Source: Cupriavidus necator
GTDB taxonomy: Bacteria > Pseudomonadota > Gammaproteobacteria > Burkholderiales > Burkholderiaceae
DNA: 32,000 nt
NCBI RefSeq assembly: GCF_016127575.1
Contig: NZ_CP066019.1
Location: forward strand, 2,370,001 to 2,402,000
Reading direction: 5' to 3'
In this document: positions 2,492 to 22,108 of the stretch, piece after piece
Layout of the letters: every line of letters begins with the position of its first letter
Numbering within the stretch: the stretch's first letter is position 1
Program-made: the position numbers and the translations under genes
The notes under the pieces: generated by a model
What the model was told of the DNA's origin: nothing
Databases searched by the model: none
What the model saw: only the letters and a program-made list of their open reading frames with translations

Positions 2492-3613
2492 TCAGGCCGC
2501 CCTGGCGGCCAGTGCGGGATAGTCGGTCAGCCCGCGTGCGCCACCACCAAACAGCGTGTCGCGGTCATGGGGGTTGAGCGTCGCGCCAGCGCGCAGGCGC
2601 TCCGGCAGGTCGGGGTTGGCCACGAACGGCCGGCCGAAGGCAATCAGATCGGCCCATCCCTCGTTCAGCGCGGCCTGCGCACGTTCCGCGGTGTACTTGC
2701 CGGCGTAGATCAGCGTGCCCCGATACACCTCGCGCAGCCGCTGCTTGAATGCGGCGGGCATATGCGGTGCATCGTCCCAGTCGGCCTCGGCGATATGGAT
2801 GTAGCCCACGCCCAGCTCGCCGAGCAGCTTTGCCGCGGCCGCATAGGTGGTTTCCGGATCGGCGTCGACGCAGCCATTGAGCGTGGTCAGCGGCGCCAGG
2901 CGGATACCGACCCGGTCCTTGCTGGCCGTGCCCTCGATCAGCGCCTGCGTCACCTCGCCCAGGAACCGCAGGCGGTTTTCTAGCGAGCCGCCATATTCGT
3001 CGGTACGGTTGTTGGCTTCCGAGTCGATGAACTGGTTGACCAGATAGCCGTTGGCCGCGTGCAGTTCCACACCGTCGAAGCCGGCCGCCATCGCGTTGCG
3101 CGCGGCCTGGCGGAATTCGTCGACGATGGCGTGGATCTCTTCCACCTTGAGCGCGCGCGGGTGGGATGCCTGCACGAAGCCCGGCTTGCCATCCTGATCG
3201 GCGACGAACACGTTCACACCGTGCGCCGGGATGGCGGACGACGACACCGGTGCGTGGCCATCGAGCAGACTGACATGGCTCAGGCGGCCCACGTGCCAGA
3301 GCTGCGCGAAGATGCGACCGCCCGCTTCATGCACGGCAGCGGTGACCTTGCGCCAGCCGGCGACCTGCGCCGGCGTGTGGATGCCGGGCGTCCACGCATA
3401 GCCCTTGCCGAGCGGCGAAATCCAGGTGCCCTCGCTGACGATCAGGCCGGCGCTGGCGCGTTGCGCGTAGTACTCGGCCATCAGTTCGTTCGGCACGTCG
3501 TCGGGCTGGCTTGCGCGCGAACGCGTCATCGGCGGCATCACGATGCGATTGGGCAGCGTGAGGGCACCCAGCGAATGCGGCTGGAACAGCGGATCGTGTG
3601 TATCGGACATCAT
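2492..3613 (-). CDS. Old Yellow Enzyme family NAD(P)H:flavin oxidoreductase / alkene reductase (NemA / PETN-reductase-like)
   Basis: 373 aa. OYE hallmarks: LTLPNRIVMPPMTRSRA, QLWHVGR, ELHAANGYL (His/Asn pair), NNRTDEYGGSLENR (proton-donor Tyr present), FGRPFVANPDLPERL. GGAGG lies just upstream. The second Met at 3610 has better SD spacing and is an alternative start. The gene begins 7 nt after the dkgB stop, suggesting an operon. Confidence 0.9.
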   Translation of the reverse strand: MMSDTHDPLFQPHSLGALTLPNRIVMPPMTRSRASQPDDVPNELMAEYYAQRASAGLIVSEGTWISPLGKGYAWTPGIHTPAQVAGWRKVTAAVHEAGGRIFAQLWHVGRLSHVSLLDGHAPVSSSAIPAHGVNVFVADQDGKPGFVQASHPRALKVEEIHAIVDEFRQAARNAMAAGFDGVELHAANGYLVNQFIDSEANNRTDEYGGSLENRLRFLGEVTQALIEGTASKDRVGIRLAPLTTLNGCVDADPETTYAAAAKLLGELGVGYIHIAEADWDDAPHMPAAFKQRLREVYRGTLIYAGKYTAERAQAALNEGWADLIAFGRPFVANPDLPERLRAGATLNPHDRDTLFGGGARGLTDYPALAARAA

Positions 3614-5538: not shown

Positions 5539-6648
5539 ATGAGCCCCCTCTTCAAGCCCTTTGCCATGGCCGAGCAAACGCTATCCAACCGGATCGCCAT
5601 GGCGCCGCTGACCCGTTCGCGCAACCCGGACGGGGTGCCCAACGATCTCAACGCGCTCTACTACGGCCAGCGTGCCGACGCCGGCCTGATCGTGACCGAA
5701 GGCACGGTGATCTCGCCCAGCGCGCAGGGATTCCTGTTCAATCCGGGCCTCTACACGCCGCAACAGGTTGAAGGCTGGCGCAAGGTGACCGACGCGGTGC
5801 ATGCGAAGCGCGGAACGATCTTCACGCAGCTCTGGCACGTCGGCCGGGTGAGCCACGTCTCGATCCAGCCTGGCGGCATCCAGCCGGTCAGCGCAACCGA
5901 CCAGGTTGCGAAGAACACCAAGGCCTGGGGCTATACCGCCGACGGCACGCCCGGTGCGGTCGATGTATCCGCGCCGCGCGCGCTGGCCAGCGGTGAGGTC
6001 TACGGCGTAATCGCCGATTTCGCGGAAGCCGCGGCCAATGCGATCGCCGCCGGCTTCGACGGCGTGGAACTTCACGGTGCCAATGGCTACCTGATCGAAC
6101 AGTTCCTGAACCCGACGGTGAACGACCGCACCGACGAATTCCGTGGCGACACGCTGGAAGGCCGTACCCGCTTTGTACTGGCTGCCATCGACGCCGTGGC
6201 AGCCCGGATCGGCGCGCATCGCACGGCCATCCGCCTGTCTCCCTATGGCGGACTGGGCGACATGGCCGAGTACCCTGAGCTGGAGCAGACCTATCTCCAT
6301 CTGGCCGACGAGCTCTCGAAGCGGAATATCGCCTACGTCCACCTCATGGACCAGAGCACGCGCGGCAGCTCGGCCACGCCGGGCGACTTCCTGGCAAGGT
6401 TCCGACGTCGCTTCACGGGTGCGCTGATCCTTGCGGGTGGCATGACACGCGCACGCGCCGAGCAGCTGATTGCCGATGACCTGATCGACATTGCCGCCTT
6501 CGGCGAGCCGTTCATCGCCAACCCCGATCTGGTTGCCCGGCTTGAGAACAACTGGCCGCTGGCCTCGTCGGACCGCGCGCACCACTACGGTGGCGGCGCC
6601 GAGGGCTACACGGACTATCCCGCCTACGACGGCGCCGCCGCAGCCTGA
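5539..6648 (+). CDS. Old Yellow Enzyme family flavin oxidoreductase paralog with an atypical active-site motif
   Basis: 369 aa. OYE motifs: LSNRIAMAPLTRSR, QLWHVGR, ELHGANGYL, FGEPFIANPDLVARL. The canonical RTDEYGGS motif reads RTDEFRGD here (Phe codon ttc at 6139-6141). GGAG lies 8 nt upstream of the ATG. Confidence 0.9.
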   Translation: MSPLFKPFAMAEQTLSNRIAMAPLTRSRNPDGVPNDLNALYYGQRADAGLIVTEGTVISPSAQGFLFNPGLYTPQQVEGWRKVTDAVHAKRGTIFTQLWHVGRVSHVSIQPGGIQPVSATDQVAKNTKAWGYTADGTPGAVDVSAPRALASGEVYGVIADFAEAAANAIAAGFDGVELHGANGYLIEQFLNPTVNDRTDEFRGDTLEGRTRFVLAAIDAVAARIGAHRTAIRLSPYGGLGDMAEYPELEQTYLHLADELSKRNIAYVHLMDQSTRGSSATPGDFLARFRRRFTGALILAGGMTRARAEQLIADDLIDIAAFGEPFIANPDLVARLENNWPLASSDRAHHYGGGAEGYTDYPAYDGAAAA

Positions 6649-8343: not shown

Positions 8344-8423
8344 GCTTGCCGTAGCCAGCGGGGTGCGCCGGCCGGCGCGCCTCGCTACAATGGCTCCCGG
8401 GCAATCCAACGCCAGGGGGCCGA

Positions 8424-9413
8424 ATGTCCGAGACCACTGAGGTTGCTGGCAACGCGGCGGCTGCGCCGCCGCGCAACAGCGCCGCCGATGCCGAGGCCCG
8501 CGCCATCGCGGTTGCCGATACGGTCGCGCGCACTGCCGTCGAGCAGGCCGACCATGCCATGCGCCACTGGACCGACCCCACCGCGGGGCCGGTACGCATC
8601 GGCTCCGCGCAGCACCTGCAGATGTTCTGCAATATGCTGCTGCAGACCCACAACCCCTACAAACCCGCCGTGATCGACTGGCCGAAGCTGTCGCCGGAGG
8701 CCCTGCACCGCGTCACCTCGCTGCCGATCTGGGATATCGCCGTGCAGACCGAGGGCCGCGCCTCGATCCGAGTCAAGACCTTTGCCCAGACCGTCAGCGA
8801 TCCGCTGCTGCGCATCGCGCTGGAAATGGACGGCGGCGAAGAGGCGCGCCACAAGGTGGTGCTGTCGAAACTGGTCGAGGCCTACGGCATCGCGCTCGCG
8901 CCCGAGCCTGACTACCCGCCCCCGGACGATCCGGAATGGGGCTGGCTGGTTACCGGCTACAGCGAGTGCATCGACAGCTTCTTCGCCTTCGGCCTGTTCG
9001 CCGCGGCCAGGCGCTCCGGCTTCTTCCCCGCCGAGCTGGTCGAGACCTTCGAGCCGGTGATCCAGGAGGAAGGCCGGCATATCCTGTTCTTCGTCAACTG
9101 GGCCGCCTGGTACCGGCGCACCCTGCCGTGGTGGCGCCGTCCGCTGTTTGCGCTGAAGGTGGCGCGGGTGTGGGCCTTCCTGGTCTGGGAGCGCATCGGC
9201 ATCGCGCGCGGCATCGACACCGACGGCGTGGCCCAGGACGCCAACTTCACCATGAACGGCTCGGCGGCGCTGGGCGAAGCCCTGACGCCGGGCGCGATGA
9301 TCGACCTGTGCCTGGCCGAGAACGACCGGCGCATGGCCGGCTACGACGCGCGCCTGCTGCGCCCGGAAACCGTGCCGCGGCTGGCCCGGCTGGCGCGGCG
9401 CTTCGTCAAGTAG
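8424..9413 (+). CDS. Ferritin-like di-iron carboxylate protein (AurF / desaturase-like four-helix-bundle signature), function unknown; linked to hpnB
   Basis: 329 aa with AGGGGG upstream of the ATG. The ligand pattern is E110 ... E140-A-R-H143 ... E181 ... E216-G-R-H219, with about 30 and 35 aa spacings, which is the classical E/ExxH/E/ExxH di-iron motif. A Trp/Arg-rich amphipathic stretch (RRTLPWWRRPLFALKVARVWAFLVWERI) follows. The stop is 9 nt before the hpnB ATG. Confidence 0.75.
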   Translation: MSETTEVAGNAAAAPPRNSAADAEARAIAVADTVARTAVEQADHAMRHWTDPTAGPVRIGSAQHLQMFCNMLLQTHNPYKPAVIDWPKLSPEALHRVTSLPIWDIAVQTEGRASIRVKTFAQTVSDPLLRIALEMDGGEEARHKVVLSKLVEAYGIALAPEPDYPPPDDPEWGWLVTGYSECIDSFFAFGLFAAARRSGFFPAELVETFEPVIQEEGRHILFFVNWAAWYRRTLPWWRRPLFALKVARVWAFLVWERIGIARGIDTDGVAQDANFTMNGSAALGEALTPGAMIDLCLAENDRRMAGYDARLLRPETVPRLARLARRFVK

Positions 9414-9422
9414 GGCCGGCCC

Positions 9423-10565
9423 ATGCACCTTGCGTTGGCATTGTCGCTGCTGTCGCTGGCGGTCTGGCTGGTGCTGATCTTTGCCCGCGCGGGCTTCTGG
9501 CGCGTGCGCAAGCCGGCTGCCGCACCGGATCCCGCAGCCTGGCCGGAGGTGGTCGCGGTCATCCCCGCCCGCAACGAGGCCGACGTGATCGGCCGCGCCG
9601 TGGCCGGCGTGCTGGGCCAGCGCTACCGGGGCCGGCTGGCGCTGGTGGTGGTGGACGACCACAGCCAGGACGGCACCGCCGATATCGCCCGCGCCGCCGC
9701 CGCGGCCACCGCGCGCCCGCGGGGGCTGACCGTGATCGGCGCTCGCGAGCTGCCGGCCGGCTGGAGCGGCAAGGTCTGGGCGCAGTCCGAAGGATTGGCC
9801 GCGGCCGACGGCATCGCCCCGCAGGCCCGCTACGTCTGGCTGACCGATGCCGATATCTGGCACGGCCCCGGCGTGCTGGCCGGTCTGGTGGCGCGCGCCG
9901 AGCACGAACGGCGCGACCTGGTCTCGCTGATGGTCCGGCTGCGCTGCGAATCCGCCTGGGAACGGCTGATCGTGCCGGCCTTTGTCTTCTTCTTCGCCAA
10001 GCTCTACCCCTTCGCCCGCGTGCGCGATGCCCGCTGCCGCGTGGCGGCCGCGGCCGGGGGCTGCATGCTGGCCAGCCGCGCGGCGCTGGCGCGCATTGGC
10101 GGCTTTGCCGCCATCCGCGGCGAGCTGATCGACGACTGCGGCCTGGCCGCGCGCATCAAGCCCGGCGGCGCGATCCGGCTGGACCTGGCCGACGACAGCG
10201 TGTCGTTGCGGCCCTACAACGACTGGCGCAGCCTGTGGGACATGATCGCGCGCAGCGCTTATACGCAATTGCGCTACTCGCCGCCGCTGCTGGCCGGCGC
10301 GGTGGCGGGCATGGTGCTGACCTACCTGGTGCCGCCGGTGCTGGCGCTCGGCTGGCGGCTGTGGCCGGCATGGCTGGCCTGGGGCGCGATGACCCTGGCC
10401 TACCTGCCGATGCTGCGCGAATACCGGCAGCCGGCGTGGCTGGCGCCGCTGCTGCCGGTCACGGCGCTGTTCTACCTGGGGGCAACCATCGACTCGGCAC
10501 GGCGCTACTGGCTGCGGCGCGGCGGGCAGTGGAAGGGCCGGGCGCAGGCGCCGGTGCGGTCCTGA
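9423..10565 (+). CDS. hpnB: Hopanoid-associated family-2 glycosyltransferase HpnB
   Basis: 380 aa with an N-terminal TM helix. It matches the recalled HpnB pattern: AVIPARNEADVIG, VVVDDHSQDGT, LPAGWSGKVWA, WLTDADI, LVSLMVRLRC, AFVFFFAKLYPF, AAAGGCML, LIDDCGLA, plus C-terminal TM helices. It sits in an hpn context. Confidence 0.8.
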   Translation: MHLALALSLLSLAVWLVLIFARAGFWRVRKPAAAPDPAAWPEVVAVIPARNEADVIGRAVAGVLGQRYRGRLALVVVDDHSQDGTADIARAAAAATARPRGLTVIGARELPAGWSGKVWAQSEGLAAADGIAPQARYVWLTDADIWHGPGVLAGLVARAEHERRDLVSLMVRLRCESAWERLIVPAFVFFFAKLYPFARVRDARCRVAAAAGGCMLASRAALARIGGFAAIRGELIDDCGLAARIKPGGAIRLDLADDSVSLRPYNDWRSLWDMIARSAYTQLRYSPPLLAGAVAGMVLTYLVPPVLALGWRLWPAWLAWGAMTLAYLPMLREYRQPAWLAPLLPVTALFYLGATIDSARRYWLRRGGQWKGRAQAPVRS

Positions 10566-10580: not shown

Positions 10581-11588
10581 TTAGCGCTTGTCGAGATACC
10601 CCTGCGCCCGGAACCACTCCAGCGCGTCCCGCAAACCCTCCTGGTATGGCCGCGGCTGATAGCCCAGCACCTTGCGCGCCTTGTCTGATGTAAAGAACAT
10701 CCGGTACCGGGACATATTGAGTCCATCTACAGTGATGAACGGCTCCTTGCCGGTAAAGCGTGCCGCCGCCTCCGCCCCGTACGCCAGCGGGTACAGCGGC
10801 CAGCGCGGCAGCTGCATGGTCGGCGGGCGCCGGCCGCACAGCTGCGCGATGTCACGCAGCATCTGCTGCAGCATCACGTCCTGGCCGCCCAGGATGTAGC
10901 GCTCGCCGGCCTGGCCGCGTTCCAGCGCCAGGAAATGCCCTTCGGCCACGTCATCCACATGCGCCAGGTTCAGGCCGGTATCGACAAAGGCGGGGATCTT
11001 GCCCGTGGCCGCCTCGACGATGATGCGCCCGGTCGGCGTCGGCCGCACGTCGCGCGGGCCGATCGGAGTGGACGGGTTGACGATGACCGCCGGCAGGCCG
11101 CGCTCGGCCACCAGTTTTTCGACCACGCGCTCGGCCAGCACCTTGCTGCGCTTGTAGGCGCCGATGGCCTCGTGCGGGCGCAGCGCCGCGGTCTCGTCCA
11201 CCGGCGCCCGCGCGCCGGCCACGCGCAGCGTCGCCACGCTGCTGGTATAGACCACCCGCTCGACGCCGGCCTGCTGCGCGGCCTCCATCACGGCCAGGGT
11301 GCCGTCGACGTTAGTGCGCACGATCTCCTCGGGGTCCGGCGCCCACAGCCGGTAGTCGGCGGCCACATGGAACAGGTAGCGCACGCCCTGCAGCGCGGCA
11401 GCCACCGCGCCGGCGTCGCGCATGTCGCCTTCCGCCACGCTCACCGGCAGCCCGGCCAAGTTGGCGCGCGGGCTTTGCGGGCGCACCAGCACGCGCACCC
11501 GGAAGCCGCGTGCCAGCGCCCTGCGCACCACCGCCGAGCCCAGAAAGCCCGAGGCGCCTGTCACCAGCACGTCATCGTTTTTCGTCAT
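10581..11588 (-). CDS. hpnA: Hopanoid-associated sugar epimerase / NAD-dependent SDR HpnA
   Basis: 335 aa from ATG 11588. Rossmann motif VLVTGASGFLGSAVV and extended-SDR catalytic YKRSK. Dihydroflavonol-reductase-like body. Convergent with hpnB and divergent from ispH. Confidence 0.85.
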   Translation of the reverse strand: MTKNDDVLVTGASGFLGSAVVRRALARGFRVRVLVRPQSPRANLAGLPVSVAEGDMRDAGAVAAALQGVRYLFHVAADYRLWAPDPEEIVRTNVDGTLAVMEAAQQAGVERVVYTSSVATLRVAGARAPVDETAALRPHEAIGAYKRSKVLAERVVEKLVAERGLPAVIVNPSTPIGPRDVRPTPTGRIIVEAATGKIPAFVDTGLNLAHVDDVAEGHFLALERGQAGERYILGGQDVMLQQMLRDIAQLCGRRPPTMQLPRWPLYPLAYGAEAAARFTGKEPFITVDGLNMSRYRMFFTSDKARKVLGYQPRPYQEGLRDALEWFRAQGYLDKR

Positions 11589-11609
11589 AAGCCCGTTTTC
11601 CCGTGAGGC

Positions 11610-11651
11610 GGAGTCGCCCCGGGCCAGCCTCGCGCTGGCCAAGGCGACTCC
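11610..11651. promoter_or_regulatory. Compound hairpin / inverted repeat in the hpnA leader
   Basis: ggagtcgcc (11610-11618) and ggcgactcc (11643-11651) are perfect 9-bp arms. They enclose an inner ggccag/ctggcc stem. The structure begins 22 nt upstream of the hpnA start. Confidence 0.4.
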
Positions 11652-11708
11652 AGACAAAGCCGGCGTGTCGGGTATATAGTAACCACCGTGCGACGGAAAT
11701 GTGATCTG

Positions 11709-11737
11709 CGGTGGATCTCCGGTGGATGCCGGTGCAT
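11709..11737 (+). promoter_or_regulatory. Three helically phased direct repeats, CGGTG(G/C)AT, upstream of ispH
   Basis: cggtggat at 11709, cggtggat at 11720 and cggtgcat at 11730 have 11- and 10-nt spacing. They lie 60-90 nt upstream of the ispH ATG (11797). This geometry is typical of direct-repeat-binding regulators. Confidence 0.35.
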
Positions 11738-11796
11738 TTCCTGTCCCGCCATCCCAAACACTGAAACCCGTTGCAAAGGGTCGGGGGGCTTACTCT

Positions 11797-12810
11797 ATGC
11801 AGGTGATTCTTGCTCAGCCCCGGGGCTTCTGCGCTGGCGTGGTGCGCGCGATCGAGATCGTCGACCGCGCCCTCGTCAAGCATGGCGCCCCGGTGTTCGT
11901 GCGGCATGAGATCGTGCACAACAAGCACGTCGTAGAGGGACTGAAGGACAAGGGGGCGCGCTTCGTCGAAGAACTGGACGAAGTCCCGACCGGCGCCGTG
12001 ACGATCTTCAGCGCGCACGGGGTCTCGCGCGAGGTCATCGCCGATGCCAGCCAGCGCCAGTTGCATGCCATCGACGCCACCTGCCCGCTGGTGATCAAGG
12101 TCCATACCCAGGGCCGCCAGTACGCGGCCAGCGGCCGCACCGTGATCCTGATCGGCCATGCCGGCCACCCGGAAGTGGAAGGCACCATGGGCCAGATCCC
12201 GGGCAAGGTGATCCTGGTGCAGAACGAGGCCGAGGTCGCGCAGCTGGACCTGCCCGCCGACACCCCGGTCGCCTATGTCACGCAGACCACGCTGAGCGTG
12301 GACGACACCCGCAATATCATCGCCGCGCTCGGGCGCCGCTTCAGCAACCTGGTCGGTCCCGATACGCGCGATATCTGCTACGCCACGCAGAACCGCCAGA
12401 GCGCGGTGCGCGACCTGTGCAAGCTGGCCGACGTGATCCTGGTGATCGGCGCGACGAACAGCTCCAACTCCAACCGCCTGCGCGAGATCGGCACTGAAAG
12501 CGGCGTGCCCAGCTACCTGATCGCCGAAGGCGCCGAGCTGGACCCCGCCTGGGTGCGCGACGCCAACGTGGTGGGCATCACCGCCGGCGCCTCCGCCCCC
12601 GAGGAAATGGTCGAGGACGTGATCAACGCGCTGCGCCGGCTGGGCCCGGTGGATGTCACCACCATGGCCGGGCGCGAGGAACATGCCGAGTTCCGGCTGC
12701 CGCCCGAACTGGCCGACGTAAAGCCGCAATCGGCCCCGCGCAAGGCCGGCAAGGAACCCGCCGCAGTCGCGGCCGCACCGGCCACCGCCAACGAGAATAT
12801 CGCCGGCTGA
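11797..12810 (+). CDS. ispH: 4-hydroxy-3-methylbut-2-enyl diphosphate reductase (IspH/LytB), hopanoid-cluster copy
   Basis: 337 aa from ATG 11797. [19 protein letters not shown], HEIVHN, SAHGVS, DATCPLVxKVH, GHxGHPEVxGT and SSNSNRL match IspH, including the three Fe-S Cys positions. An Ala/Pro-rich C-terminal tail of about 20-40 aa extends beyond the canonical end. Confidence 0.93.
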
Positions 12811-12831: not shown

Positions 12832-14001
12832 TTGGCTATTCCGCTACTGCAGGTCGCCCGCGTGGGCGCCTACATCGTCGGCAAGCATCTGTCGCGACAG
12901 AAGCGCTATCCGCTTGCCCTGATGCTGGAACCGCTGTTCCGCTGCAACCTGGCGTGCTCAGGCTGCGGCAAGATCGATTATCCGGATCCCATCCTGAACC
13001 AGCGCCTGTCGGTGCAGGAATGCCTGGAGGCGGTGGATGAATGCGGTGCCCCGGTGGTGTCCATCGCCGGCGGCGAGCCGCTGCTGCACAAGGACATGCC
13101 GCAGATCGTGCAAGGCATCATCGCGCGGCGCAAGTTCGTCTACCTGTGCACCAATGCGCTGCTGATGGAAAAGAAGCTGGACCAGTACCAGCCCAGCCCG
13201 TATTTCATCTGGTCGGTGCACCTGGACGGCGACCGCGAGATGCATGACCGCTCGGTGTGCCAGGAAGGCGTGTACGACCGCTGCGTCGAGGCAATCCGGC
13301 TGGCCAAGCAACGGGGTTTCCGCGTCAATATCAACTGCACGCTGTTCAACGATGCCCAGCCCGAGCGCGTGGCGAAGTTCTTCGACTCGGTCAAGGCGCT
13401 GGGCGTGGACGGCATCACCGTGTCGCCTGGCTATGCCTATGAACGCGCGCCGGACCAGCAGCACTTCCTGAACCGCGGCAAGACCCGCCAGCTGTTTCGC
13501 GACATCCTCAGCCGCGGCCGCGCCGGCAAGAACTGGGCCTTCAGCCAGTCGACGCTGTTCCTGGACTTCCTGGCCGGCAACCAGACCTACCACTGCACCC
13601 CGTGGGGCAACCCGGCGCGCACCGTATTCGGCTGGCAGCGTCCGTGCTACCTGGTGGGCGAGGGCTATGCCGCCACCTTCCGCGAGCTGATGGAAGAAAC
13701 CGACTGGGACGCCTACGGCACCGGCAACTACGAGAAGTGCGCCGACTGCATGGTCCACAGCGGCTATGAGGCCACCGCCGTGGCCGACACCTTTGCCCAT
13801 CCGCTCAAGGCGCTGGGCGTGAGCCTGCGCGGCGTGCGCACCAGCGGGCCGATGGCGCCCGATATTGCGCTGGACCGGCAGCGGCCGGCGGAATACGTGT
13901 TCTCGCGCCACGTCGAGATCAAGCTCGAGGAAATCCAGCGCGCGAAACCGCGCGCCAACCGGCCGCGGCCGGCCGAGGCCAACGCCGCGGCCACGCACTG
14001 A
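12832..14001 (+). CDS. hpnH: Radical SAM adenosylhopane synthase HpnH
   Basis: 389 aa with a TTG start and AGGAAG 5 nt upstream. MLEPLFRCNLACSGCGKI carries the CxxxCxxC radical-SAM cluster motif. GGEPLLH and a C-terminal Cys-rich region (CTPWGNP, CYL, CADCMVHSGYE) match the recalled HpnH pattern. Confidence 0.93.
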   Translation: MAIPLLQVARVGAYIVGKHLSRQKRYPLALMLEPLFRCNLACSGCGKIDYPDPILNQRLSVQECLEAVDECGAPVVSIAGGEPLLHKDMPQIVQGIIARRKFVYLCTNALLMEKKLDQYQPSPYFIWSVHLDGDREMHDRSVCQEGVYDRCVEAIRLAKQRGFRVNINCTLFNDAQPERVAKFFDSVKALGVDGITVSPGYAYERAPDQQHFLNRGKTRQLFRDILSRGRAGKNWAFSQSTLFLDFLAGNQTYHCTPWGNPARTVFGWQRPCYLVGEGYAATFRELMEETDWDAYGTGNYEKCADCMVHSGYEATAVADTFAHPLKALGVSLRGVRTSGPMAPDIALDRQRPAEYVFSRHVEIKLEEIQRAKPRANRPRPAEANAAATH

Positions 14002-14012
14002 CCGCACTACCG

Positions 14013-15365
14013 ATGGCCGCGGAACTTGCCGCCACCCTCCCAGGCGCTGCGCTGACCTGCGTGTCGGCGGCCTATGCGCTGGCCGCGGCCTGGCTGTCGC
14101 ATCGCGCGCCGGCGGCAAGCGGCGGCACCGCGACGACGCCGGTCAGCGTGCTCAAGCCGCTGTGCGGCGCCGAGCCCCGGCTGTACGAGAACCTGGCCAC
14201 GCTGTGCCGGCAGCGGCATCCGTCGTTCCAGCTGGTATTCGGCGTGCATGCCGCGGACGATCCCGCCATCGCCGTGGTCGAACGGCTGCGCCGCGACTTC
14301 CCGGCGTGCGACATCGCGCTGGTGGTCGATCCGCAAGTGCACGGCACCAACCTGAAAGTCAGCAACCTGGTCAACCTGTTCGCACAAGCGAAGCACGATG
14401 TGCTGGTGATCGCCGACAGCGATATCGCCGTGCCGCCCGACTACCTGGCGCGCGTGACCGCGCCGCTGGCCGACGCCGGCGTGGGCGTGGTCACCTGCCT
14501 CTACCGCGGCAATCCGACTGGCGGGCGGTGGTCGCGCATCGGCGCGCAGTTCATCAACGACTGGTTCGCGCCGTCGGTGCGCATCGCCCACGCGGGCGGC
14601 TCGCAACGCTTTGCCTTTGGCGCGACGATTGCGCTGCGGCGGGATGCGCTGGTTTCGGTCGGCGGGTTCGAGGTATTGGCGGACCGGCTGGCGGATGACT
14701 TCTGGCTGGGCGAGCTGACGCGGCGACAAGGGTTGCGCACGGTGCTGTCAGACGTGGTGGTCAGCACCGATGTCACCGAGGAACACTTTGCCGACCTTTG
14801 GCGGCATGAGGTGCGCTGGCTGCGCACGATAAGGTCGCTCAATCCGCTGGGTTTTGCCTTCACCTTTATTACCTTCACCTGGCCGATGCTGGTGCTGGGC
14901 GTATTGCTGGCGCCGCTCCCTGCTGTTCTTGCCCTGGCGACCCTCGGCGTGATCGCGCGCAGCATGATGGCGGGCAGCGTGGCCGCTGCGTTGCGCGCGC
15001 CGTTGCGCGATGCGATGCTGCTGGCCGGCTGGGCCGTTGCGCTGACGGGCAAGCGCGTGCGGTGGCGCGAGCAGGTGCTGCCGGTACATGATGGGCAGCA
15101 CTCCGGGCGAGCGCCTGCCCTCTCCCCCGCCCCTCTCCCGCAAGCGGGCGAGGGGAGAAAACAGGCGGACAGGGAGCCGCCATCGCGTTATTCCGCACGC
15201 CGTCCTGCGGCAGCGTCCGTTGATGTGACGACGTTGAACGCAGCGGCGGTTCGCTCCCCTCTCCCGCCTGCGGGAGAGGGGCCGGGGGAGAGGGCCGGCG
15301 TATCCACGAAGTCCCCACCCCCAACCCCACCCTTCACCGGCATCCATCCCCAGAGGCCGCAATGA
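14013..15365 (+). CDS. hpnI: Hopanoid glycosyltransferase HpnI (N-acetylglucosaminyl transferase type) with a repeat-encoded C-terminal extension
   Basis: VSVLKPLCGAEPxLYENL, FQLVFGV, VIADSDI and the DxxLG / RHEVRWLRT ceramide-glucosyltransferase-like core run to about residue 358. Residues ~365-450 are translated from the palindromic repeats at 15117-15295. The stop overlaps the hpnJ ATG (ATGA). The true 3' end is uncertain. Confidence 0.82.
   Translation: MAAELAATLPGAALTCVSAAYALAAAWLSHRAPAASGGTATTPVSVLKPLCGAEPRLYENLATLCRQRHPSFQLVFGVHAADDPAIAVVERLRRDFPACDIALVVDPQVHGTNLKVSNLVNLFAQAKHDVLVIADSDIAVPPDYLARVTAPLADAGVGVVTCLYRGNPTGGRWSRIGAQFINDWFAPSVRIAHAGGSQRFAFGATIALRRDALVSVGGFEVLADRLADDFWLGELTRRQGLRTVLSDVVVSTDVTEEHFADLWRHEVRWLRTIRSLNPLGFAFTFITFTWPMLVLGVLLAPLPAVLALATLGVIARSMMAGSVAAALRAPLRDAMLLAGWAVALTGKRVRWREQVLPVHDGQHSGRAPALSPAPLPQAGEGRKQADREPPSRYSARRPAAASVDVTTLNAAAVRSPLPPAGEGPGERAGVSTKSPPPTPPFTGIHPQRPQ
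15117..15295. repeat. Inverted pair of REP/MITE-like palindromic units (41 and 42 nt arms) separated by ~96 nt, in the hpnI-hpnJ junction
   Basis: Arm 1 (15117-15157) is gccctctcccccgcccctctcccgcaagcgggcgaggggag. The reverse complement of arm 2 (15254-15295) is gccctctcccccggcccctctcccgcaggcgggagaggggag, which matches at about 38/41 positions with one indel. Each arm also contains its own hairpin (cccctctcccgc-N4-gcgggngagggg). The translations (PLPQAGEG, PLPPAGEGPGER; opposite strand SPLARLRERGGGEG) are typical of intergenic repeat families in beta- and gamma-proteobacteria. Confidence 0.8.
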
Positions 15366-16786
15366 AAAAAACCCTGTTCCTCCAGGCCCCTTCCTTCGAC
15401 GGCTTCGACGGCGGCGCGGGCTCGCGCTACCAGGCCAAGCGCGAGATCAAGTCGTTCTGGTACCCGACCTGGCTGGCGCAGCCCGCCGCACTGGTGCCGG
15501 GCAGCCGCGTGCTCGACGCACCGGCCGACGGCCTGACCGTGCAGCAGACGCTGGATATCGCCGCGGACTATGAACTGGTCATCATCCACACCAGCACGCC
15601 CTCGTTCCCCACCGACGCCAAGTTCGCCGAGGAACTGAAGCAGCGCAAGCCGGACGTGATGATCGGCATGGTCGGCGCCAAGCCCGCAGTCGATCCGGGC
15701 GGCACGCTGGGTGCCAGCGAGGCCATCGACTTCGTCTGCCGCGAGGAGTTCGACTACACCTGCCAGGACGTGGCCGCGGGCAAGCCGCTCCAGGACATCC
15801 TGGGCCTGTCCTATCGCTTGCCGGACGGCTCGCTCGAACACAACGGGCAGCGCCCGATGATCGAGAACATGGACGAGCTGCCCTTCGTGGCGCCGGTCTA
15901 CCAGCGCGACCTGAAGATCGACAACTACTTCATCGGCTACCTGAAGCACCCCTATGTGTCGATCTACACCGGCCGCGGCTGCCGTTCGCGCTGCACCTTC
16001 TGCCTGTGGCCGCAGACCGTGGGCGGGCACCGCTACCGCACGCGCTCGGCCGAGAGCGTGATCGCCGAGGTCAAATGGATCAAGGAGAACATGCCCGAGG
16101 TCAAGGAGATCATGTTCGACGACGACACCTTCACCGACTTCAAGCCGCGCGTGGAAGAGATCGCGCGCGGGCTGGGCCAGCTGGGGGTCACGTGGTCCTG
16201 CAATGCCAAGGCCAACGTGCCGTACAGCACGCTCAAGATCATGAAGGAGAACGGCCTGCGCCTGCTGCTGGTGGGCTATGAGTCCGGCGACGACCAGATC
16301 CTGCTGAACATCAAGAAGGGCCTGCGCACGGACATCGCGCGCCGCTTCACCGAGGACTGCCGCAAGCTGGGCATCCAGATCCACGGCACCTTTATCCTGG
16401 GCCTGCCGGGCGAGACGCGCGAGACCATCGAGAAGACCATCGAGTACGCCAAGGAAATCAACCCGCACACCATCCAGGTGTCGCTGGCCGCGCCCTACCC
16501 CGGGACCACGCTGTACCGGCAGGCGGTGGAGAACGGCTGGCTCGAGGAAAACAAGGTCATCAACCTGGTCAACGACCAGGGCGTGCAGCTGGCCGCGATC
16601 AGCTATCCGCACCTGTCCAGGGAAGACATCTACCACGGCGTGGAGACCTTCTATAAGCGCTTCTACTTCCGCCCCGGCAAGATCTGGGAAATCGTGCGCG
16701 AGATGCTGGGCAGCTGGGACATGATGAAGCGGCGCCTGCGCGAAGGCGTGGAGTTCTTCCGCTTCCTGCGCTCGCACGAGGCCTGA
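15362..16786 (+). CDS. hpnJ: B12-binding radical SAM protein HpnJ
   Basis: 474 aa. N-terminal cobalamin-binding-like domain, then IYTGRGCRSRCTFCLWP (CxxxCxxC). The remainder matches the recalled HpnJ family. It follows hpnI with a 4-nt overlap. Confidence 0.92.
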   Translation: MKKTLFLQAPSFDGFDGGAGSRYQAKREIKSFWYPTWLAQPAALVPGSRVLDAPADGLTVQQTLDIAADYELVIIHTSTPSFPTDAKFAEELKQRKPDVMIGMVGAKPAVDPGGTLGASEAIDFVCREEFDYTCQDVAAGKPLQDILGLSYRLPDGSLEHNGQRPMIENMDELPFVAPVYQRDLKIDNYFIGYLKHPYVSIYTGRGCRSRCTFCLWPQTVGGHRYRTRSAESVIAEVKWIKENMPEVKEIMFDDDTFTDFKPRVEEIARGLGQLGVTWSCNAKANVPYSTLKIMKENGLRLLLVGYESGDDQILLNIKKGLRTDIARRFTEDCRKLGIQIHGTFILGLPGETRETIEKTIEYAKEINPHTIQVSLAAPYPGTTLYRQAVENGWLEENKVINLVNDQGVQLAAISYPHLSREDIYHGVETFYKRFYFRPGKIWEIVREMLGSWDMMKRRLREGVEFFRFLRSHEA

Positions 16787-16788
16787 TC

Positions 16789-17628
16789 CTGGCCCACGCG
16801 CTTTCCTGTGCCTCGCAACGCGCGCTGATCGTCACCGCCGACGACTTCGGCCTGCACCCCGCCGTCAATGAGGCGGTGGAGCTGGCCCACCGCGACGGCG
16901 TGCTCAATGCCGCCAGCCTGATGGTGGGCGCGCCCGCCGTGGCGGATGCGGTCGAGCGCGCGCGCCGGCTGCCGTCGTTGCGCGTGGGGCTGCACGTGGT
17001 GCTGGCCGACGGCCCGGCCACGCTGCCGCGCGCGCGGATCCCCGACCTGGTCGACGCCGAAGCCCGCTTCGGCTCGGCCATGGCCCTGGACGGCTGCCGC
17101 TTCTTCTTCCTGCCGCGCGTGCGCCGCCAGCTGGCGGCGGAGATCCGCGCGCAGTTCGAAGCCTTTGCCGCCACCGGCCTGCCGCTTGACCACGTCAACA
17201 CGCACAAGCATTTCCACCTGCACCCCACGGTGCTGTCGCTGATCCTGTCGATCGGGCGCGACTACGGCCTGCGCGCGATGCGCCTGCCGCGCGAGCAGGG
17301 CGCGCCGTTGCCGCTGCGCCCCTGGCTGGCGCTGCTGCGCCGGCGCCTGGACCGCGCCGGCATCGCGCACAATGACTACGTGGTCGGCATCGCGCGCAGC
17401 GGGCAGATGGACGAGGCAGCCCTGCTGCAGGCGCTGGCGCAGTTGCCCGCGGGCGTGGGCGAGATCTACCTGCATCCGGCCGTGATCTCTGGCGAGGCCA
17501 TTACCGCATCGATGCGCGGCTACCGCCACGCCGACGAGCTGGCCGCGCTGCTGTCGCCGCGCGTGCGCGCCGCGCTGGAGCGCGCGGCCAACCGGCGCGG
17601 CGGCTTTGCCGACGTGCTGGTGCCCTGA
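16789..17628 (+). CDS. hpnK: YdjC-family deacetylase HpnK; start codon non-canonical or uncertain
   Basis: The conserved YdjC N-terminus RALIVTADDFGLHPAVNEAV is encoded at 16819-16875. In this frame there is no ATG, GTG or TTG between the stop at 16654-16656 and the GTG at 16876. I propose CTG 16789 (GAGG 7 nt upstream). CTG 16783 (overlapping the hpnJ TGA), ATC 16786 and CTG 16825 are alternatives. Confidence 0.75.
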   Translation: MAHALSCASQRALIVTADDFGLHPAVNEAVELAHRDGVLNAASLMVGAPAVADAVERARRLPSLRVGLHVVLADGPATLPRARIPDLVDAEARFGSAMALDGCRFFFLPRVRRQLAAEIRAQFEAFAATGLPLDHVNTHKHFHLHPTVLSLILSIGRDYGLRAMRLPREQGAPLPLRPWLALLRRRLDRAGIAHNDYVVGIARSGQMDEAALLQALAQLPAGVGEIYLHPAVISGEAITASMRGYRHADELAALLSPRVRAALERAANRRGGFADVLVP

Positions 17629-17637
17629 TTGTTCAAG

Positions 17638-18642
17638 ATGAAACGCATTGCTTACCTGACCGGCCTGATCGGGCTGCTGGCGCTCACCGCACTGGTGATC
17701 CACCAAGGCGCCAGCGACATCGCCGCCATCGTGGCGCAGGGCGGCTGGCTGCTGCTGTTGCTGGTGCCCCTGCATGCACTGCCGCTGCTGCTCGATGCGC
17801 AAGGCTGGCGCGTCCTGCTGACCTCGGCCGACCCCGAGGAGAAGGCGGGGCTCGGTTTCCTGTGGTGGGTCGCCACGGTGCGCGAAGCGGTCAACCGCCT
17901 GCTGCCGACGGTGGGGGTCGGCGGTGAACTGGTCGGCATCCGCCTGACGCGGCTGCGCATCCGCGACACCACCGCCGTCACCGCCAGCATCGTGGTTGAA
18001 GTGATGCTGACACTGTTCTCGCAGTACCTGTTCTCGGCCATGGGGGTGCTGCTGCTGGTGGCCGCGCTGCAGGACAGCGGCGGGGCCTGGATCATCCTGG
18101 CCGGGCTGCTGCTGTCATTGCCGGTGCCGGTGCTGTTCGCGCTGTCGCTGCGGCACACCGCGATCTTCGAGAAACTGGAAGGCGCGGCGCGCAAGCTGTT
18201 TGGCGAAGATCACCGCATCGTCGCCTTGATCGACGGTGCGCGGCTCGATGCCCATATCCGCGCGCTCAACCGGCGCCGGCGCGAGCTGCTGGCGGCACTG
18301 GGCTGGCAACTGGCAGGGCTGGTCAGCGGCACGCTGGAGATCTGGCTGGCGCTGATGCTGCTGGGCCATCCGGTGCCGGTCTGGCAGGCGCTGGCGATCG
18401 AATCGCTGACCCAGGCCGCGCGCCACGTGGCCTTCTTCGTGCCGGCCGGGCTGGGCGTGCAGGAAGCGGTGGTGATGCTGCTGGGGCAGGTGCTGGGGAT
18501 GGATGCGCAGGTCTCGCTGGCGCTGGCGCTGGTCAAGCGCGCGCGCGAGATCCTGTTCGGCGTGCCCGCGCTGCTGTCATGGCAATGGGTGGAGCTGCGC
18601 CACTGGCGGCGCAGCCGGCACACGGGCCACGCCTCGCCCTGA
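17638..18642 (+). CDS. hpnL: Hopanoid-associated membrane protein HpnL (lysylphosphatidylglycerol-synthase-TM / flippase-like family)
   Basis: About 334 aa from ATG 17638; TTG 17629, abutting the hpnK stop, is an alternative. Around 8 hydrophobic helices. The LPxxVGGExVGIRL-type motif and the position after hpnK fit HpnL. Confidence 0.78.
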   Translation: MKRIAYLTGLIGLLALTALVIHQGASDIAAIVAQGGWLLLLLVPLHALPLLLDAQGWRVLLTSADPEEKAGLGFLWWVATVREAVNRLLPTVGVGGELVGIRLTRLRIRDTTAVTASIVVEVMLTLFSQYLFSAMGVLLLVAALQDSGGAWIILAGLLLSLPVPVLFALSLRHTAIFEKLEGAARKLFGEDHRIVALIDGARLDAHIRALNRRRRELLAALGWQLAGLVSGTLEIWLALMLLGHPVPVWQALAIESLTQAARHVAFFVPAGLGVQEAVVMLLGQVLGMDAQVSLALALVKRAREILFGVPALLSWQWVELRHWRRSRHTGHASP

Positions 18643-18655: not shown

Positions 18656-19300
18656 TCAGGCGTCAGACGCCTGGCGCGCGTTATGGGTGGTCAGGTACTT
18701 CACCAGCCCGTCGACCCCGCTGCGCGCGACGATGTCCGCAAACTGCTTGCGATACACCTCGATCAGCCACGCCCCCATCATATTGATGTCATAGATCTTC
18801 CAGCCGTTGGCTGTGCGCTGCAGCCGGTAATCGATCTGCATCTCGTCGGCATTGTTGATCACACGCGTCTGCACCACCACATCGGTGGCGCCGCTGCCGG
18901 ACTTGACCGGCTGGTAGCGGAACTTGACGCTCTGCTCGCGCAGTTGCGCCAGCGACACCGCATAGCTGCGCACGAGCAGCATCTGGAACTGCTCATGGAG
19001 CTGTTGCTGCTGCTCCGGCGTGGCCGTGCGCCAGGCACTGCCCAGCGCCAGCCGCGTGGTGCGCTGGAAATCCGTGTAGGGCAGGAACTGCTTCTGCACC
19101 ACCGCGGTAATCTTGGCGAGGTCGCCGGCGCGGGTGTCGGGATTGGACTGGATGGTGCCGATCACGCCCTCCACCGCGGCCTGCACCAGCCGCTCGGGGC
19201 TGGCGCGCAGGTCGCCGGGCTGGACTGCCTGGGCGTGCGCTACGGAAACCATGGCCACCGCCGCAAGCGGCGCCAGGGGAAGCAAACCGTGAATCGTCAT
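18656..19300 (-). CDS. hpnM: Periplasmic MlaC/Ttg2D-family lipid-binding protein HpnM
   Basis: 214 aa from ATG 19300. Signal peptide MTIHGLLPLAPLAAVAMVSVAHA-QA. The FxRTTRLALGSAW, YxxQ and WKIYDI/MMG motifs are typical of the toluene-tolerance Ttg2D/MlaC fold. The tracked 418-aa ORF extension is non-homologous. Confidence 0.85.
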   Translation of the reverse strand: MTIHGLLPLAPLAAVAMVSVAHAQAVQPGDLRASPERLVQAAVEGVIGTIQSNPDTRAGDLAKITAVVQKQFLPYTDFQRTTRLALGSAWRTATPEQQQQLHEQFQMLLVRSYAVSLAQLREQSVKFRYQPVKSGSGATDVVVQTRVINNADEMQIDYRLQRTANGWKIYDINMMGAWLIEVYRKQFADIVARSGVDGLVKYLTTHNARQASDA

Positions 19301-19471
19301 CGATATGAGAACCAGGAAGGACGGTGAAGCGGCGCCGGCGCTGCAGCGCCGATGCCAGGCTGACAGTTTATAGCGGATCGGCCTGAATCGCGGATGCCCG
19401 GGCCGCGCATGCCGCATGCGCCACGCTGCCAGCCGATATACTCGCGGTTCGTGCTCCTTCCGGATCCGCCC

Positions 19472-22108
19472 ATGCTGACTTCGCTGCTGACACGCATTGT
19501 CCGGCTTGCCACTGCCTGGCCGTGGCGCGTCATCATCCTGGCGGCATTGCTGACCGCCGTCAGCGGCGTCTACGTGGCCCGCAACTTTGCGATCAACACC
19601 GACATCGGCCGCCTGCTGGAATCCGACGCCCCCTGGGCGGTGCGCGATGCCGCCATCGGCGACGCCTTTCCCCAGCGCAACCAGTTGATCCTGGCGGTGG
19701 TGCAGGCGCCCGCGACCGAGCTGGCCGATGCCGCCGCCGACGCGCTGGCCGAGGCGCTGCGCCGCCAGCCGGCACGCTTCACCGCGGTCAGCCAGCCCGG
19801 CGGCGGTGCGTTCTTCGCGCGCAACGGATTGCTGTTCGCCAGCACCGATGAAGTGCGCCAGCTCACGCAACAGCTGATGCAGGCGCGCCCGCTCGTCAAC
19901 GCGCTCGCGCATGACCCGACCCTGCGCGGCCTGTCCGATCTCCTCGCCACCACGCTGGCGCTGCCGCTGCAGATGGGGCAGGTAAAGCTGGGCGACATGG
20001 CCAGGCTGCTGGGCAGCAGTGCACGGACACTAGACCAGGTGCTGGCCGGCAAGCCCGTCGCGCTGTCCTGGGCAGGGCTGCTCGACGACAGCCTCAAGCC
20101 CGGGCCCGATGGCCAGGTCTACAGCTACATCGCGCTCAGCCCCGTGCTGGACTACAGCGACCTGCAGGCCGGGGCCGCCGCCTCGCGCGCGATCCGGCAG
20201 GCGGCGGCCGAGCTGCAGCTGGCGCAGCGCTACCAGGCCACGGTGCGGCTGACCGGCCCGCAGGCGCTGGCCGACGATGAATTCGCCTCGGTCAGCGACG
20301 GCGCCGTGCTCAACGGCGTGCTGACGGTGCTGGTGGTGGTGCTGATCCTGTGGCTGGCCTTGCGCTCGGCGCGGCTGATCGTTGCGGTGCTGGCCAGCCT
20401 GTTTGCCGGGCTGCTCATCACCGCCGCGCTGGGGCTGGCCATGGTTGGCGCGCTGAACATGATCTCGGTGGCGTTCGCGGTGCTGTTCGTCGGGCTGGGG
20501 GTGGACTTCGGCATCCAGTTCGGCGTGCGCTACCGCGCCGAGCGCCATGACCGCGACCATATCGTCGAAGCGCTGGGGCTGGCCGCGCGCGCGGTGGGCG
20601 CTCCGCTGGCGCTGGCGGCCGCGGCCACGGCGGCGGCGTTCTTCTGCTTCCTGCCCACCGACTACCGCGGCGTGGCCGAGCTGGGGCTGATCGCCGGCGT
20701 GGGCATGATGGTGGCATTCGCCACCACCTTCACGCTGCTGCCGGCGCTGATCTGCGTGCTCAAGCCCGGCGGCGAGCCCGAGGCGCCGGGCTTCGCGTGG
20801 CTGGCGCCCGCGGACCGGTTCTTCGACCGCTATCGCAAGCCGGTGCTGCTGGTCACCCTGCTCGCGATCCTGGCAGGCGCGCCGCTGCTGCCGCACCTGC
20901 GCTTTGACTTCGACCCGCTGCACCTGAAGGACCCCAGGTCCGAATCGATGGCCACGCTGCTGGCGCTCAAGGACGCGCCGCAGGCCGGCACCGACGATGT
21001 CAGCGTGCTGGCGCCTTCGCTGCCGGCCGCGCGCGATCTGGCCGGCAAGCTGGCGGCGCTGCCCGAGGTGGCGCGCGCGGTCACGCTGCAGACTTTCATC
21101 CCCGCAGACCAGCCGCCCAAGCTGCAGGCCATCGGCCAGGCCTCGGCCGCGCTGATGCCGGCGCTGACGCAGCCCACCGCCACGCCCGCCACCGACAGCG
21201 CGCGCGTCAGTGCGCTGCGCAATGCCGCGCGGCAGCTGGCCATCGCCGCCGACGAGCATCCCGGTCCGGGCGCGGCCGAAGCCGCGCACCTGTCCGCCAC
21301 GCTGAAGCAGCTGGCGGCCGCCGACGCCGCCACGCGCGACCGCGCCGAGCGCGCCATCGCCGTGCCGCTGCAGCTGGCGCTGGCACGGCTGAAGCTGGCG
21401 CTGGGCCCGCAACCCGTCAGCGAGCAGACGCTGCCGCCCGAACTGGTGCGCGACTGGATCACGCCGGACGGGCGCGCGCTGGTCAACGTCAGCCCGAAGC
21501 TGCCGCCGCCCGCCAGCGCACAGCGCGAGGCCGCGCTGGACCGCTTCATCACCGCGGTGCAGCGCGTGGAGCCGACCGCCACCGGCGGGCCGATCGCGAT
21601 CCGCGGCTCGGCCGATACCATCATGGCCGCCTTTGCGCAGGCCGGCATCTGGGCGGTGGTGTCAATCACCATCCTGCTATGGATCACGCTGCGCCGCTTC
21701 GGCGATGTGCTGCGCACGCTGATACCGCTGCTGGTTTCGGCCATCGTCACGCTGGAATTGTGCGTGCTGTTCGGCATTGCGCTGAACTTTGCCAACGTGA
21801 TCGCGCTGCCGCTGCTGCTGGGCGTGGGCGTCGCGTTCAAGATCTACTACGTGATTGCCTGGCGGCACGGCAAGACCCAGCTGCTGCAGTCCAGCCTGAC
21901 GCACGCCGTGCTGTACAGCGCGGCCACCACCGCCACCGCTTTCGGCAGCCTGTGGCTGTCGCAGCATCCCGGCACCGCCAGCATGGGCAAGCTGCTGGCG
22001 CTGGCACTGGCGTGCACGCTGGTCGGCGCGGTGTTCTTCCAGCCGATCCTGATGGGCCGCCCGCGCGAAGGCGCCCATCACAAACATGACAAGGCCGCCC
22101 GGTCATAA
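19472..22108 (+). CDS. hpnN: RND-superfamily hopanoid transporter HpnN
   Basis: 878 aa from ATG 19472. Two 6-TM bundles each preceded by a large periplasmic loop (MMPL/RND architecture). [10 protein letters not shown]- and [13 protein letters not shown]-type TM4/TM10 segments. Divergent from hpnM. Confidence 0.9.

Follow-up and report, generated by a model that had tools for sequence, protein, structure and literature searches.

A ferritin-like protein of predicted R2-type fold recurrently encoded beside hopanoid genes: a candidate tailoring oxidase of aerobic Proteobacteria

The window analyzed here, a 32,000-nt stretch of Cupriavidus necator DNA (contig NZ_CP066019.1, positions 2,370,001 to 2,402,000), carries a hopanoid (hpn) gene cluster and, immediately upstream of hpnB, a gene encoding a ferritin-like protein (FLP; positions 8424-9413 of the window, forward strand). 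The gene is conserved, as is its set of six putative metal ligands, the fold class is clear from its model, and the linkage to hpn genes recurs in other lineages. We propose that, in aerobic Proteobacteria, the FLP family belongs as an accessory to the genes for extended hopanoids (hpn). The explanation that fits best, and which is held with moderate confidence, is that FLP is an O2-activating di-metal oxidase whose putative substrates are C35 (extended) hopanoids; within this explanation, desaturation of the ring system (delta-6) is favored over hydroxylation as the candidate reaction.

Direct translation recovered both the open reading frame (ORF) and the residues that a first-pass annotation of the window had assigned to a class-I di-iron site (E110, E140, H143, E181, E216, and H219; Table 1), two of them within the Glu pairs E139/E140 and E215/E216. 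The ligands are spaced by 30, 41, and 35 residues; the outer two values fit the ∼30-35 residues given initially, whereas the middle one exceeds them. Variable, Ala-rich sequence makes up the first ∼40 residues, and the conserved core begins near residue 41 (ADHAMRHW). The reading frame closes with TAG at 9411-9413 and the next ATG, at 9423, opens the gene matching TIGR03469, so that the gap of 9 nt to hpnB was also read correctly. FLP and hpnB are probably co-transcribed, and further Cupriavidus and Crenobacter loci show the two genes in this order, again separated by short gaps. Residues 220-262, described in the first-pass annotation as a Trp/Arg-rich amphipathic segment, are indeed rich in both (6 of the 11 Trp of the protein, plus 7 Arg), but they are not among its top helical hydrophobic moments. 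In alignments of 12 and 33 sequences, W226, W229, W236, W237, and W250 are conserved; this does not extend across a broader one of 35, and conservation of the segment is limited to subfamily A, to which FLP belongs. No segment of FLP reached transmembrane hydrophobicity and no signal peptide was found; residues 220-262 are a possible membrane-interface element.

A search of a 5.8-billion-protein collection (E ≤ 1e-3) returned more than 7,700 homologues, the top ones being 97-75% identical to FLP and originating from Cupriavidus, Pseudoduganella, Duganella, Undibacterium, Nevskia, Zavarzinia, and others. Clustering at 50% gave 962 representative clusters at this cutoff and 190 at E ≤ 1e-30; the closest match in a scan of GTDB species genomes was C. 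necator A5-1 (95% amino-acid identity). The six ligands are invariant in the 12- and 33-sequence alignments and at least 90% conserved in the 35-sequence alignment, which reaches down to 28% identity; the motif E-E-x-R-H occurs twice. Judged by these sequences, FLP is a real conserved gene, far beyond a chance ORF. Nevertheless, FLP matched no family in Pfam (E ≤ 1) or NCBIfam, no PDB sequence, and none of the curated Hpn models (HpnA-HpnP, Shc; TIGR03466-03481, NF052374), which agrees with the first reading that it is none of the named hopanoid genes. The Pfam families suggested for it at that stage, AurF (PF11583) and type-2 fatty-acid desaturase, did not match either. When 35 relatives were scanned, all Pfam matches were sub-threshold and fell within the ferritin-like clan (Rubrerythrin in 16, AurF in 12, COQ7 in 2, ribonucleotide reductase [RNR] small chain in 2, and MiaE in 1), and the 35-sequence family profile retrieved from the PDB only a MiaE-like chain (E = 0.065), with the ligand motifs aligned. 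Membership in AurF (FLP itself unmatched; best relative at E = 0.0014), in FA_desaturase_2 (no match at E ≤ 1, and none among the 35 relatives), and in COQ7, MiaE, or Rubrerythrin (sub-threshold matches in some relatives) was rejected. In databases, orthologues go by the names “ferritin-like domain-containing protein,” “hypothetical protein,” and “aminomethyltransferase” (P0011, P0013, P0033); the last looks like a propagated misannotation, unsupported by sequence or fold.

The AlphaFold2 model of FLP, built on the 33-sequence alignment, had a predicted local distance difference test score of 85 and a predicted template modeling (pTM) score of 0.82, and places the ligands on four consecutive long helices (boundaries in Table 1). 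Foldseek searches of the PDB returned solely R2-type di-metal proteins, namely the R2 proteins of class Ib/Ie RNR (NrdF), the R2-like ligand-binding oxidase (R2lox), and the cyanobacterial aldehyde-deformylating oxygenase (ADO). Because template modeling scores were 0.45-0.56 and E-values ∼1e-3 to 1e-2, the fold class is clear, yet there is no close solved relative. According to the model, FLP is a ferritin-like di-carboxylate/His protein, an R2-like bundle with E...ExxH...E...ExxH as predicted metal ligands; together with the conserved ligands, the four-helix core and the Foldseek matches support the class-I di-iron or ferritin-like assignment made at first sight. Homologues of ∼575 residues consist of an A half (64% identical to FLP) fused in tandem to a B half (37% identical), and in 35 fused sequences both halves keep all six ligands invariant. 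The fusions come mostly from Stellaceae and other soil alphaproteobacterial metagenome-assembled genomes (MAGs). Zavarzinia encodes A and B by two neighboring genes, with 4-nt overlaps, and the C. necator window carries the subfamily A copy only, without paralogue B. A model of the fused protein gave confident domains and a pTM score of 0.55, too low to read the A-B interface; paralogue B had an insignificant match to the AcsF model (E = 0.006). The FLP family is an uncurated, well-populated branch of R2-like di-metal oxidases that includes a paired or fused paralogue form.

The genomic surroundings of FLP were compared across loci of ∼20 kb. The scan of GTDB species genomes yielded at least 592 loci, of which the best 80 were fetched, and further loci were added by exact-protein look-ups and by a search of plasmids and chromids; the Hpn proteins of the window, together with Shc and HpnG, were mapped onto all of them by tblastn. 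Loci encoding a protein at least 55% identical to FLP were classed as A-type (n = 90). In 34 of these, hpn genes were present in the fetched flanks, in at least six gene orders distributed over Beta-, Gamma-, and Alphaproteobacteria (arrowheads give the direction of the genes): (a) FLP> hpnB> <hpnA ispH hpnH... in Cupriavidus, including C. metallidurans CH34, and Crenobacter (eight loci); (b) FLP> <hpnA ispH hpnH hpnIJKL, without hpnB in the cluster, in Pseudoduganella and Janthinobacterium (Oxalobacteraceae); (c) hpnI-J-K-L> FLP> <hpnA ... shc hpnG hpnN in Nevskia, Dyella, Rhodanobacter, two Pseudomonas sp., Azotobacter, and Azomonas; (d) <hpnB FLP> shc> in two bog MAGs; (e) FLP> hpnI-J-K in one gammaproteobacterial MAG; and (f) hpnI-hpnJ-FLP-hpnK-hpnL in a Caulobacteraceae-like MAG, adjoining shc-hpnEDC-hpnB-hpnA, where the start of FLP and the stop of hpnJ overlap by 4 nt. 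The commonest hpn neighbors were hpnL (upstream, 15 loci) and hpnA (11 loci), and the association of FLP is closest with the hpnIJKL/hpnA region. Because the linkage survives rearrangement across three classes, it amounts to strong guilt by association with extended-hopanoid biosynthesis, and conserved synteny in several lineages and gene orders marks FLP as a hopanoid-associated accessory gene in the operational sense. Clusters of Cupriavidus D384, C. pauculus, C. campinensis, and Burkholderiaceae bacterium 16 (loci L007, L011, L012, and L026) pass from hpnH to hpnM/hpnN without hpnIJKL and still keep FLP-hpnB; FLP therefore does not strictly need the cyclitol-ether module in cis. In Nevskia (L004 4666-5235), a DUF2147 gene lies beside hpnI, corresponding to the “hpnT” of a preprint on hopanoid transport.

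Several observations weigh against a role in hopanoid tailoring. The synteny anticipated by the first-pass annotation held for only part of the family, since 56 of the 90 A-type loci had no hpn gene within ∼10 kb in the fetched flanks. In Burkholderia, Paraburkholderia, Caballeronia, Pandoraea, and Trinickia, FLP lies beside genes for a flavin mononucleotide (FMN) reductase, an amidase, or a CDP-diacylglycerol pyrophosphatase (CDH), and distant homologues (38-48% identity) occur in unrelated gene contexts. When the fused form or an alphaproteobacterial orthologue served as the query, the matches were almost all unnamed metagenomic sequences (Stellaceae, Caulobacteraceae, Rhizomicrobium, and Vineibacter); Acetobacteraceae and Afipia broomeae, classic producers of unsaturated hopanoids, were not among the named matches of these searches or of the one with FLP itself. 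Finally, a Rhizomicrobium MAG has an FLP orthologue, whereas cultures of R. palustre, a strain that may lack the gene or have grown without O2, gave only saturated bacteriohopanetetrol (BHT) cyclitol ether.

These observations leave room for a di-metal oxidase acting on another membrane lipid or small molecule, such as a phospholipid, an ornithine lipid, or a quinone, which would be found near hpn genes because envelope-lipid genes cluster. Besides the 56 loci without hpn neighbors, this reading can draw on the CDH gene that directly adjoins FLP in Trinickia, on the amidase and CDH genes that follow it in Paraburkholderia, and on a distant homologue adjoining a cyclopropane/mycolic-acid-synthase (CMAS)-type methyltransferase gene. 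It has difficulty with the hpn linkage, which was kept through at least six rearrangements in three classes and includes insertion into hpnIJKL with a stop/start overlap, with the HpnL-type neighbors that were retained outside the clusters, and with the named host genera seen, which by an informal tally are known or likely hopanoid producers. Action on another lipid or small molecule is rated as unlikely for FLP itself, although it is the most probable of the rival readings. The distant homologue (L091 6537-8918; 38% identity) lies directly downstream of the CMAS-type gene, a hint that the substrates of other branches of the family may be other lipids.

Outside the main cluster, the family is still accompanied by HpnL-type genes and by candidate electron donors. 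In 28 Burkholderia/Paraburkholderia loci, an NADPH-dependent FMN reductase (PF03358) is encoded ∼700 nt upstream of FLP on the same strand, and FLP is followed by the amidase and/or CDH gene. A conserved ORF of ∼72 residues (MNTPLRYKGYVVAP...FFEERHALAYA...) lies, on the same strand, between FMN reductase and FLP in locus L052 (9678-9894) and in 27 other loci of these genera; it has a weak, sub-threshold match to the CV_2116 domain, is absent from the window, and is possibly a third component of the Burkholderia FMN reductase-FLP operon. The order in Zavarzinia is PCuAC-SCO1-DUF2946-PepSY_TM-A-B-HpnL, the PepSY_TM gene overlapping the start of FLP (A) by 4 nt and the HpnL-type gene scoring 284 bits on TIGR03476 (cutoff 196); likewise, the fused A-B gene of the Stellaceae type is followed by an LPG_synthase_TM (HpnL-like) gene. 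Copper-handling genes were repeatedly seen in this company. Alphaproteobacterial A-B genes lie amid genes for PCuAC/LpqE-like, SCO1, DUF2946, and PepSY_TM proteins and a TonB receptor (L001 7074-12817, L086 9517-12144, L085 6771-12797), CzcE and DUF305 genes stand just upstream of FLP in Pseudoduganella (L003), and the window has a copper-resistance operon (CopD, CopB, multicopper oxidase; 25907-30200) ∼15 kb downstream of FLP. Metal-dependent regulation or a non-iron cofactor might lie behind this, but it may also be coincidence.

The literature leaves room for a tailoring enzyme of this kind. A 2025 survey covering 54 Alphaproteobacteria lists hpnA, hpnB, and hpnL as genes of unknown function, describes the genes for hopanoid unsaturation as “currently unknown,” and found no candidates for pentol or hexol formation in the vicinities of hpn clusters (PMC12583986). 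No gene has been named for either modification (PMC12583986; PMC6460317), in line with the initial statement that the reaction of HpnB and the genes for unsaturation and hydroxylation are unassigned, and recent surveys around hpn clusters reported no candidates (PMC12583986; bioRxiv 10.1101/2025.07.29.667474). The transport preprint of 2025-26 screened domains near shc and named hpnS (MlaA-like) and hpnT (DUF2147), not the FLP family; its text mentions neither ferritin nor di-iron. Recent papers on hopanoid genomics pass over the family, and domain-based synteny screens probably missed it because neither Pfam nor NCBIfam models it. The hopanoid desaturases proposed earlier are members of the “sterol desaturase family” (fatty-acid-hydroxylase superfamily), including hpnX (PMC12583986; PMC6460317). 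In contrast to FLP, these candidates are integral-membrane His-box enzymes of unrelated fold encoded outside hpn clusters; their distribution fits the producers of unsaturated hopanoids imperfectly, the gene not being detected in Afipia broomeae (PMC12583986).

Chemotypes bear on which reaction FLP might catalyze. B. cenocepacia, the FLP orthologue of which is 75% identical, produces a BHT cyclitol ether with one unsaturation, putatively delta-6 after earlier reports on B. cepacia, and also a bacteriohopanepentol cyclitol ether (PMC8560942). The pentol cyclitol ether was likewise found in Rhodopila LVNP, which was studied for anoxic growth, although growth conditions are not stated for that liquid chromatography-mass spectrometry sample in the text consulted. 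Unsaturated hopanoids make up 0% in R. globiformis and 49-82% in aerobic Acetobacteraceae. The pentol of Rhodopila LVNP and the lack of unsaturation in R. globiformis mildly favor desaturation, rather than side-chain hydroxylation, as the step that requires O2. A core role of FLP in BHT formation was rejected: forming BHT is a reductive step, and only some aerobic Proteobacteria have the family.

If FLP is a hopanoid-tailoring oxidase, it would be a cytoplasmic R2-like di-metal carboxylate protein containing Fe/Fe or possibly Mn/Fe, which may dock on the inner face of the membrane via its Trp/Arg-rich helices. On the model of acyl-ACP desaturases, Coq7, ADO, and R2lox, O2 would be activated by the reduced di-metal center, and the oxidized center would then take hydrogen from a C35 hopanoid (BHT or its glucosamine or cyclitol-ether derivative). 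The product would be a ring double bond, most likely delta-6, or an additional hydroxyl. Two electrons per turnover would be supplied by a flavin or heme reductase, for which the FMN reductase of Burkholderia and the PepSY_TM protein of Zavarzinia are candidates; in Cupriavidus, they may come from some general reductase. The fully specified version, in which the family comprises the O2-dependent delta-6 ring desaturases of Burkholderiales and other aerobic Proteobacteria, acting on BHT or BHT cyclitol ether at the membrane surface with electrons from the FMN reductase or PepSY_TM heme reductase, is a tentative suggestion and, in all its parts together, rather unlikely.

The first-pass annotation had also paired FLP functionally with HpnB. 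The two would then carry out one dedicated step between them, FLP oxidizing the substrate and HpnB glycosylating the hydroxyl so formed, as might be expected from their 9-nt gap and common strand in the window, from the repetition of this order in eight Cupriavidus/Crenobacter loci, and from the fact that HpnB has no assigned reaction. The adjacency is, however, lineage-specific (8 of the 90 loci, all from these two genera). Clusters of Oxalobacteraceae carry FLP without hpnB in the cluster, gammaproteobacterial hpnB lies 7-8 kb away on the opposite strand, the two genes are divergent in two MAGs, and the Burkholderia orthologues have no glycosyltransferase neighbor. The pairing is therefore considered improbable. 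Slightly less probable still is that FLP does not oxidize a substrate and is either a rubrerythrin/ferritin-like protein, which scavenges peroxide or handles iron and so protects or supplies the oxygen-sensitive Fe-S enzymes IspH, HpnH, and HpnJ, or an R2lox-like lipid binder: Rubrerythrin was the most frequent Pfam match among the relatives, the cluster encodes three Fe-S enzymes, and the hosts seen are all aerobes, but every Rubrerythrin match was below threshold, FLP is R2-sized (∼290-residue core with extra helices) rather than a four-helix rubrerythrin and lacks a rubredoxin domain, the FMN reductase and PepSY_TM protein encoded next to it also suit electron supply to an oxygenase, and the paralogue pair or fusion keeps both sites intact, which is typical of catalytic R2-type dimers.

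The hopanoid cluster downstream of FLP is compiled in Table 1. The upstream neighbor of FLP encodes an unrelated ProY-like amino-acid permease, which places FLP at the edge of a large hopanoid cluster. Upstream of the permease lie genes for two Old-Yellow-Enzyme-type flavin oxidoreductases (2492-3613, reverse; 5539-6648, forward), an aldo-keto reductase, and a LysR regulator; an Old-Yellow-Enzyme gene is also found upstream of FLP in Pseudoduganella (L003 2918-4024), with no evidence of linkage to FLP. The HpnA of the window (10581-11657, reverse) also scored 217 bits on the model of SdmB, the reductase/decarboxylase of bacterial sterol C-4 demethylation, a process in which an SdmB-like enzyme partners an oxygenase; hpnA is often the convergent neighbor of FLP. 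The HpnJ of the window, a B12/radical-SAM enzyme, resembles BchE (88 bits against the BchE model). The hpnM-like ORF, as called mechanically (18656-19912, reverse), has 418 residues, of which only ∼216-413 match MlaC/HpnM, and its 5′ part overlaps the start of hpnN (19394-22108, forward) on the opposite strand; the true start of hpnM is thus probably much later. A weak tblastn match at 23911-24354, considered as a second ferritin-like gene, turned out to be a tetratricopeptide repeat protein.

Table 1. Positions of FLP, its sequence elements, and the hopanoid genes within the window.
Feature	Position	Strand	Basis
FLP, 329-aa ferritin-like (R2-type) di-metal carboxylate protein, subfamily A	8424-9413	+	ORF, homologues, AlphaFold2, Foldseek
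Shine-Dalgarno-like AGGGGG, 4 nt before FLP ATG	8414-8419	+	direct sequence reading
E110 codon, motif PIWDIAVQTEG, core helix 1 (model helix 102-121)	8751-8753	+	translation, alignments, model
E140-A-R-H143 codons, EEARH motif, core helix 2 (model helix 127-154)	8841-8852	+	translation, alignments, model
E181 codon, GYSECIDSF motif, core helix 3 (model helix 170-198)	8964-8966	+	translation, alignments, model
E216-G-R-H219 codons, EEGRH motif, core helix 4 (model helix 203-233)	9069-9080	+	translation, alignments, model
Trp/Arg-rich segment, FLP residues 220-262	9081-9209	+	composition
9-nt spacer, FLP stop to hpnB ATG	9414-9422	+	sequence
hpnB, hopene-associated family-2 glycosyltransferase	9423-10565	+	TIGR03469, 537 bits (cutoff 379)
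hpnA, hopanoid-associated short-chain dehydrogenase/reductase (sugar epimerase)	10581-11657	-	TIGR03466, 488 bits
ispH	11701-12810	+	family-model match
hpnH	12832-14001	+	family-model match
hpnI, hpnJ, hpnK, hpnL (BHT-glucosamine/cyclitol-ether module and flippase-like HpnL)	14013-18642	+	family-model matches
hpnM-like MlaC protein	within 18656-19912	-	family-model match
hpnN	19394-22108	+	family-model match
MlaA-like lipoprotein (“hpnS” of the 2025-26 preprint)	22086-22943	+	family-model match; directly after hpnN

Hopanoids, which rank among the most widely used molecular fossils, are major lipids of bacterial membranes, and several of their modifications are still without a gene, namely ring unsaturation (C-6 and C-11) and the additional hydroxyls on the side chain of pentols and hexols. 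The FLP family provides a concrete candidate in genetically established organisms (C. necator and B. cenocepacia) and, for the orphan genes hpnL, hpnA, and hpnB, a connection to a putative redox step. Should FLP modify hopanoids with O2, the corresponding lipids would gain a mechanistic link to oxygen availability. If the modification were delta-6 desaturation, oxic conditions would gain a gene-anchored marker in the unsaturated bacteriohopanepolyols, and desaturation of a polycyclic triterpenoid would be established for a soluble-type R2-like di-iron enzyme.

Among the known di-metal proteins, AurF-type N-oxygenases and the tRNA hydroxylase MiaE belong, as FLP does, to the ferritin-like clan; AurF appears as a sub-threshold or precomputed match for some fused relatives, although the E-values (0.001-0.07 for AurF and MiaE) do not meet curated thresholds. 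The FLP genes that adjoin or interrupt hpnJ operons recall the pairing of AcsF and BchE in chlorophyll synthesis, an aerobic di-iron enzyme and its anaerobic counterpart, HpnJ being BchE-like. The corresponding proposal, that FLP is an aerobic isozyme of HpnJ, was set aside because deletion of hpnJ in B. cenocepacia, an FLP-carrying species, reportedly abolishes the cyclitol ether under aerobic conditions. Coq7 and the alternative oxidase have an interfacial four-helix di-iron core without a transmembrane helix, which is expected to reach a membrane-embedded isoprenoid substrate; FLP, in contrast, shows no significant similarity to them, is larger by ∼100 residues, and is only a putative membrane binder. 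The soluble acyl-ACP desaturases (FA_desaturase_2) are a precedent for O2-dependent di-iron lipid desaturation, and the motif style (D/E)-E-x-R-H is common to the castor delta-9 desaturase and FLP (EEARH, EEGRH); ligand spacings differ, however, and FLP has no acyl-carrier-protein context.

The likeness is greatest to R2lox and NrdF, which have the same E / ExxH / E / ExxH pattern on four core helices, the first ligand being Glu and not Asp, although identity to FLP is ∼10-15% and no PDB chain was matched significantly by sequence. FLP as an R2 subunit of RNR was nevertheless rejected. The position of the R2 radical Tyr, four residues after the His, is occupied by Leu147 (E140-A-R-H143-K-V-V-L147), an equivalence placed by motif register and not by structural superposition; FLP had no Ribonuc_red_sm match in the Pfam search, and there is no RNR context. 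R2lox binds a long-chain lipid, and NrdF is served by a flavodoxin-like partner, NrdI, an arrangement paralleled by the FMN reductase encoded next to FLP in Burkholderia.

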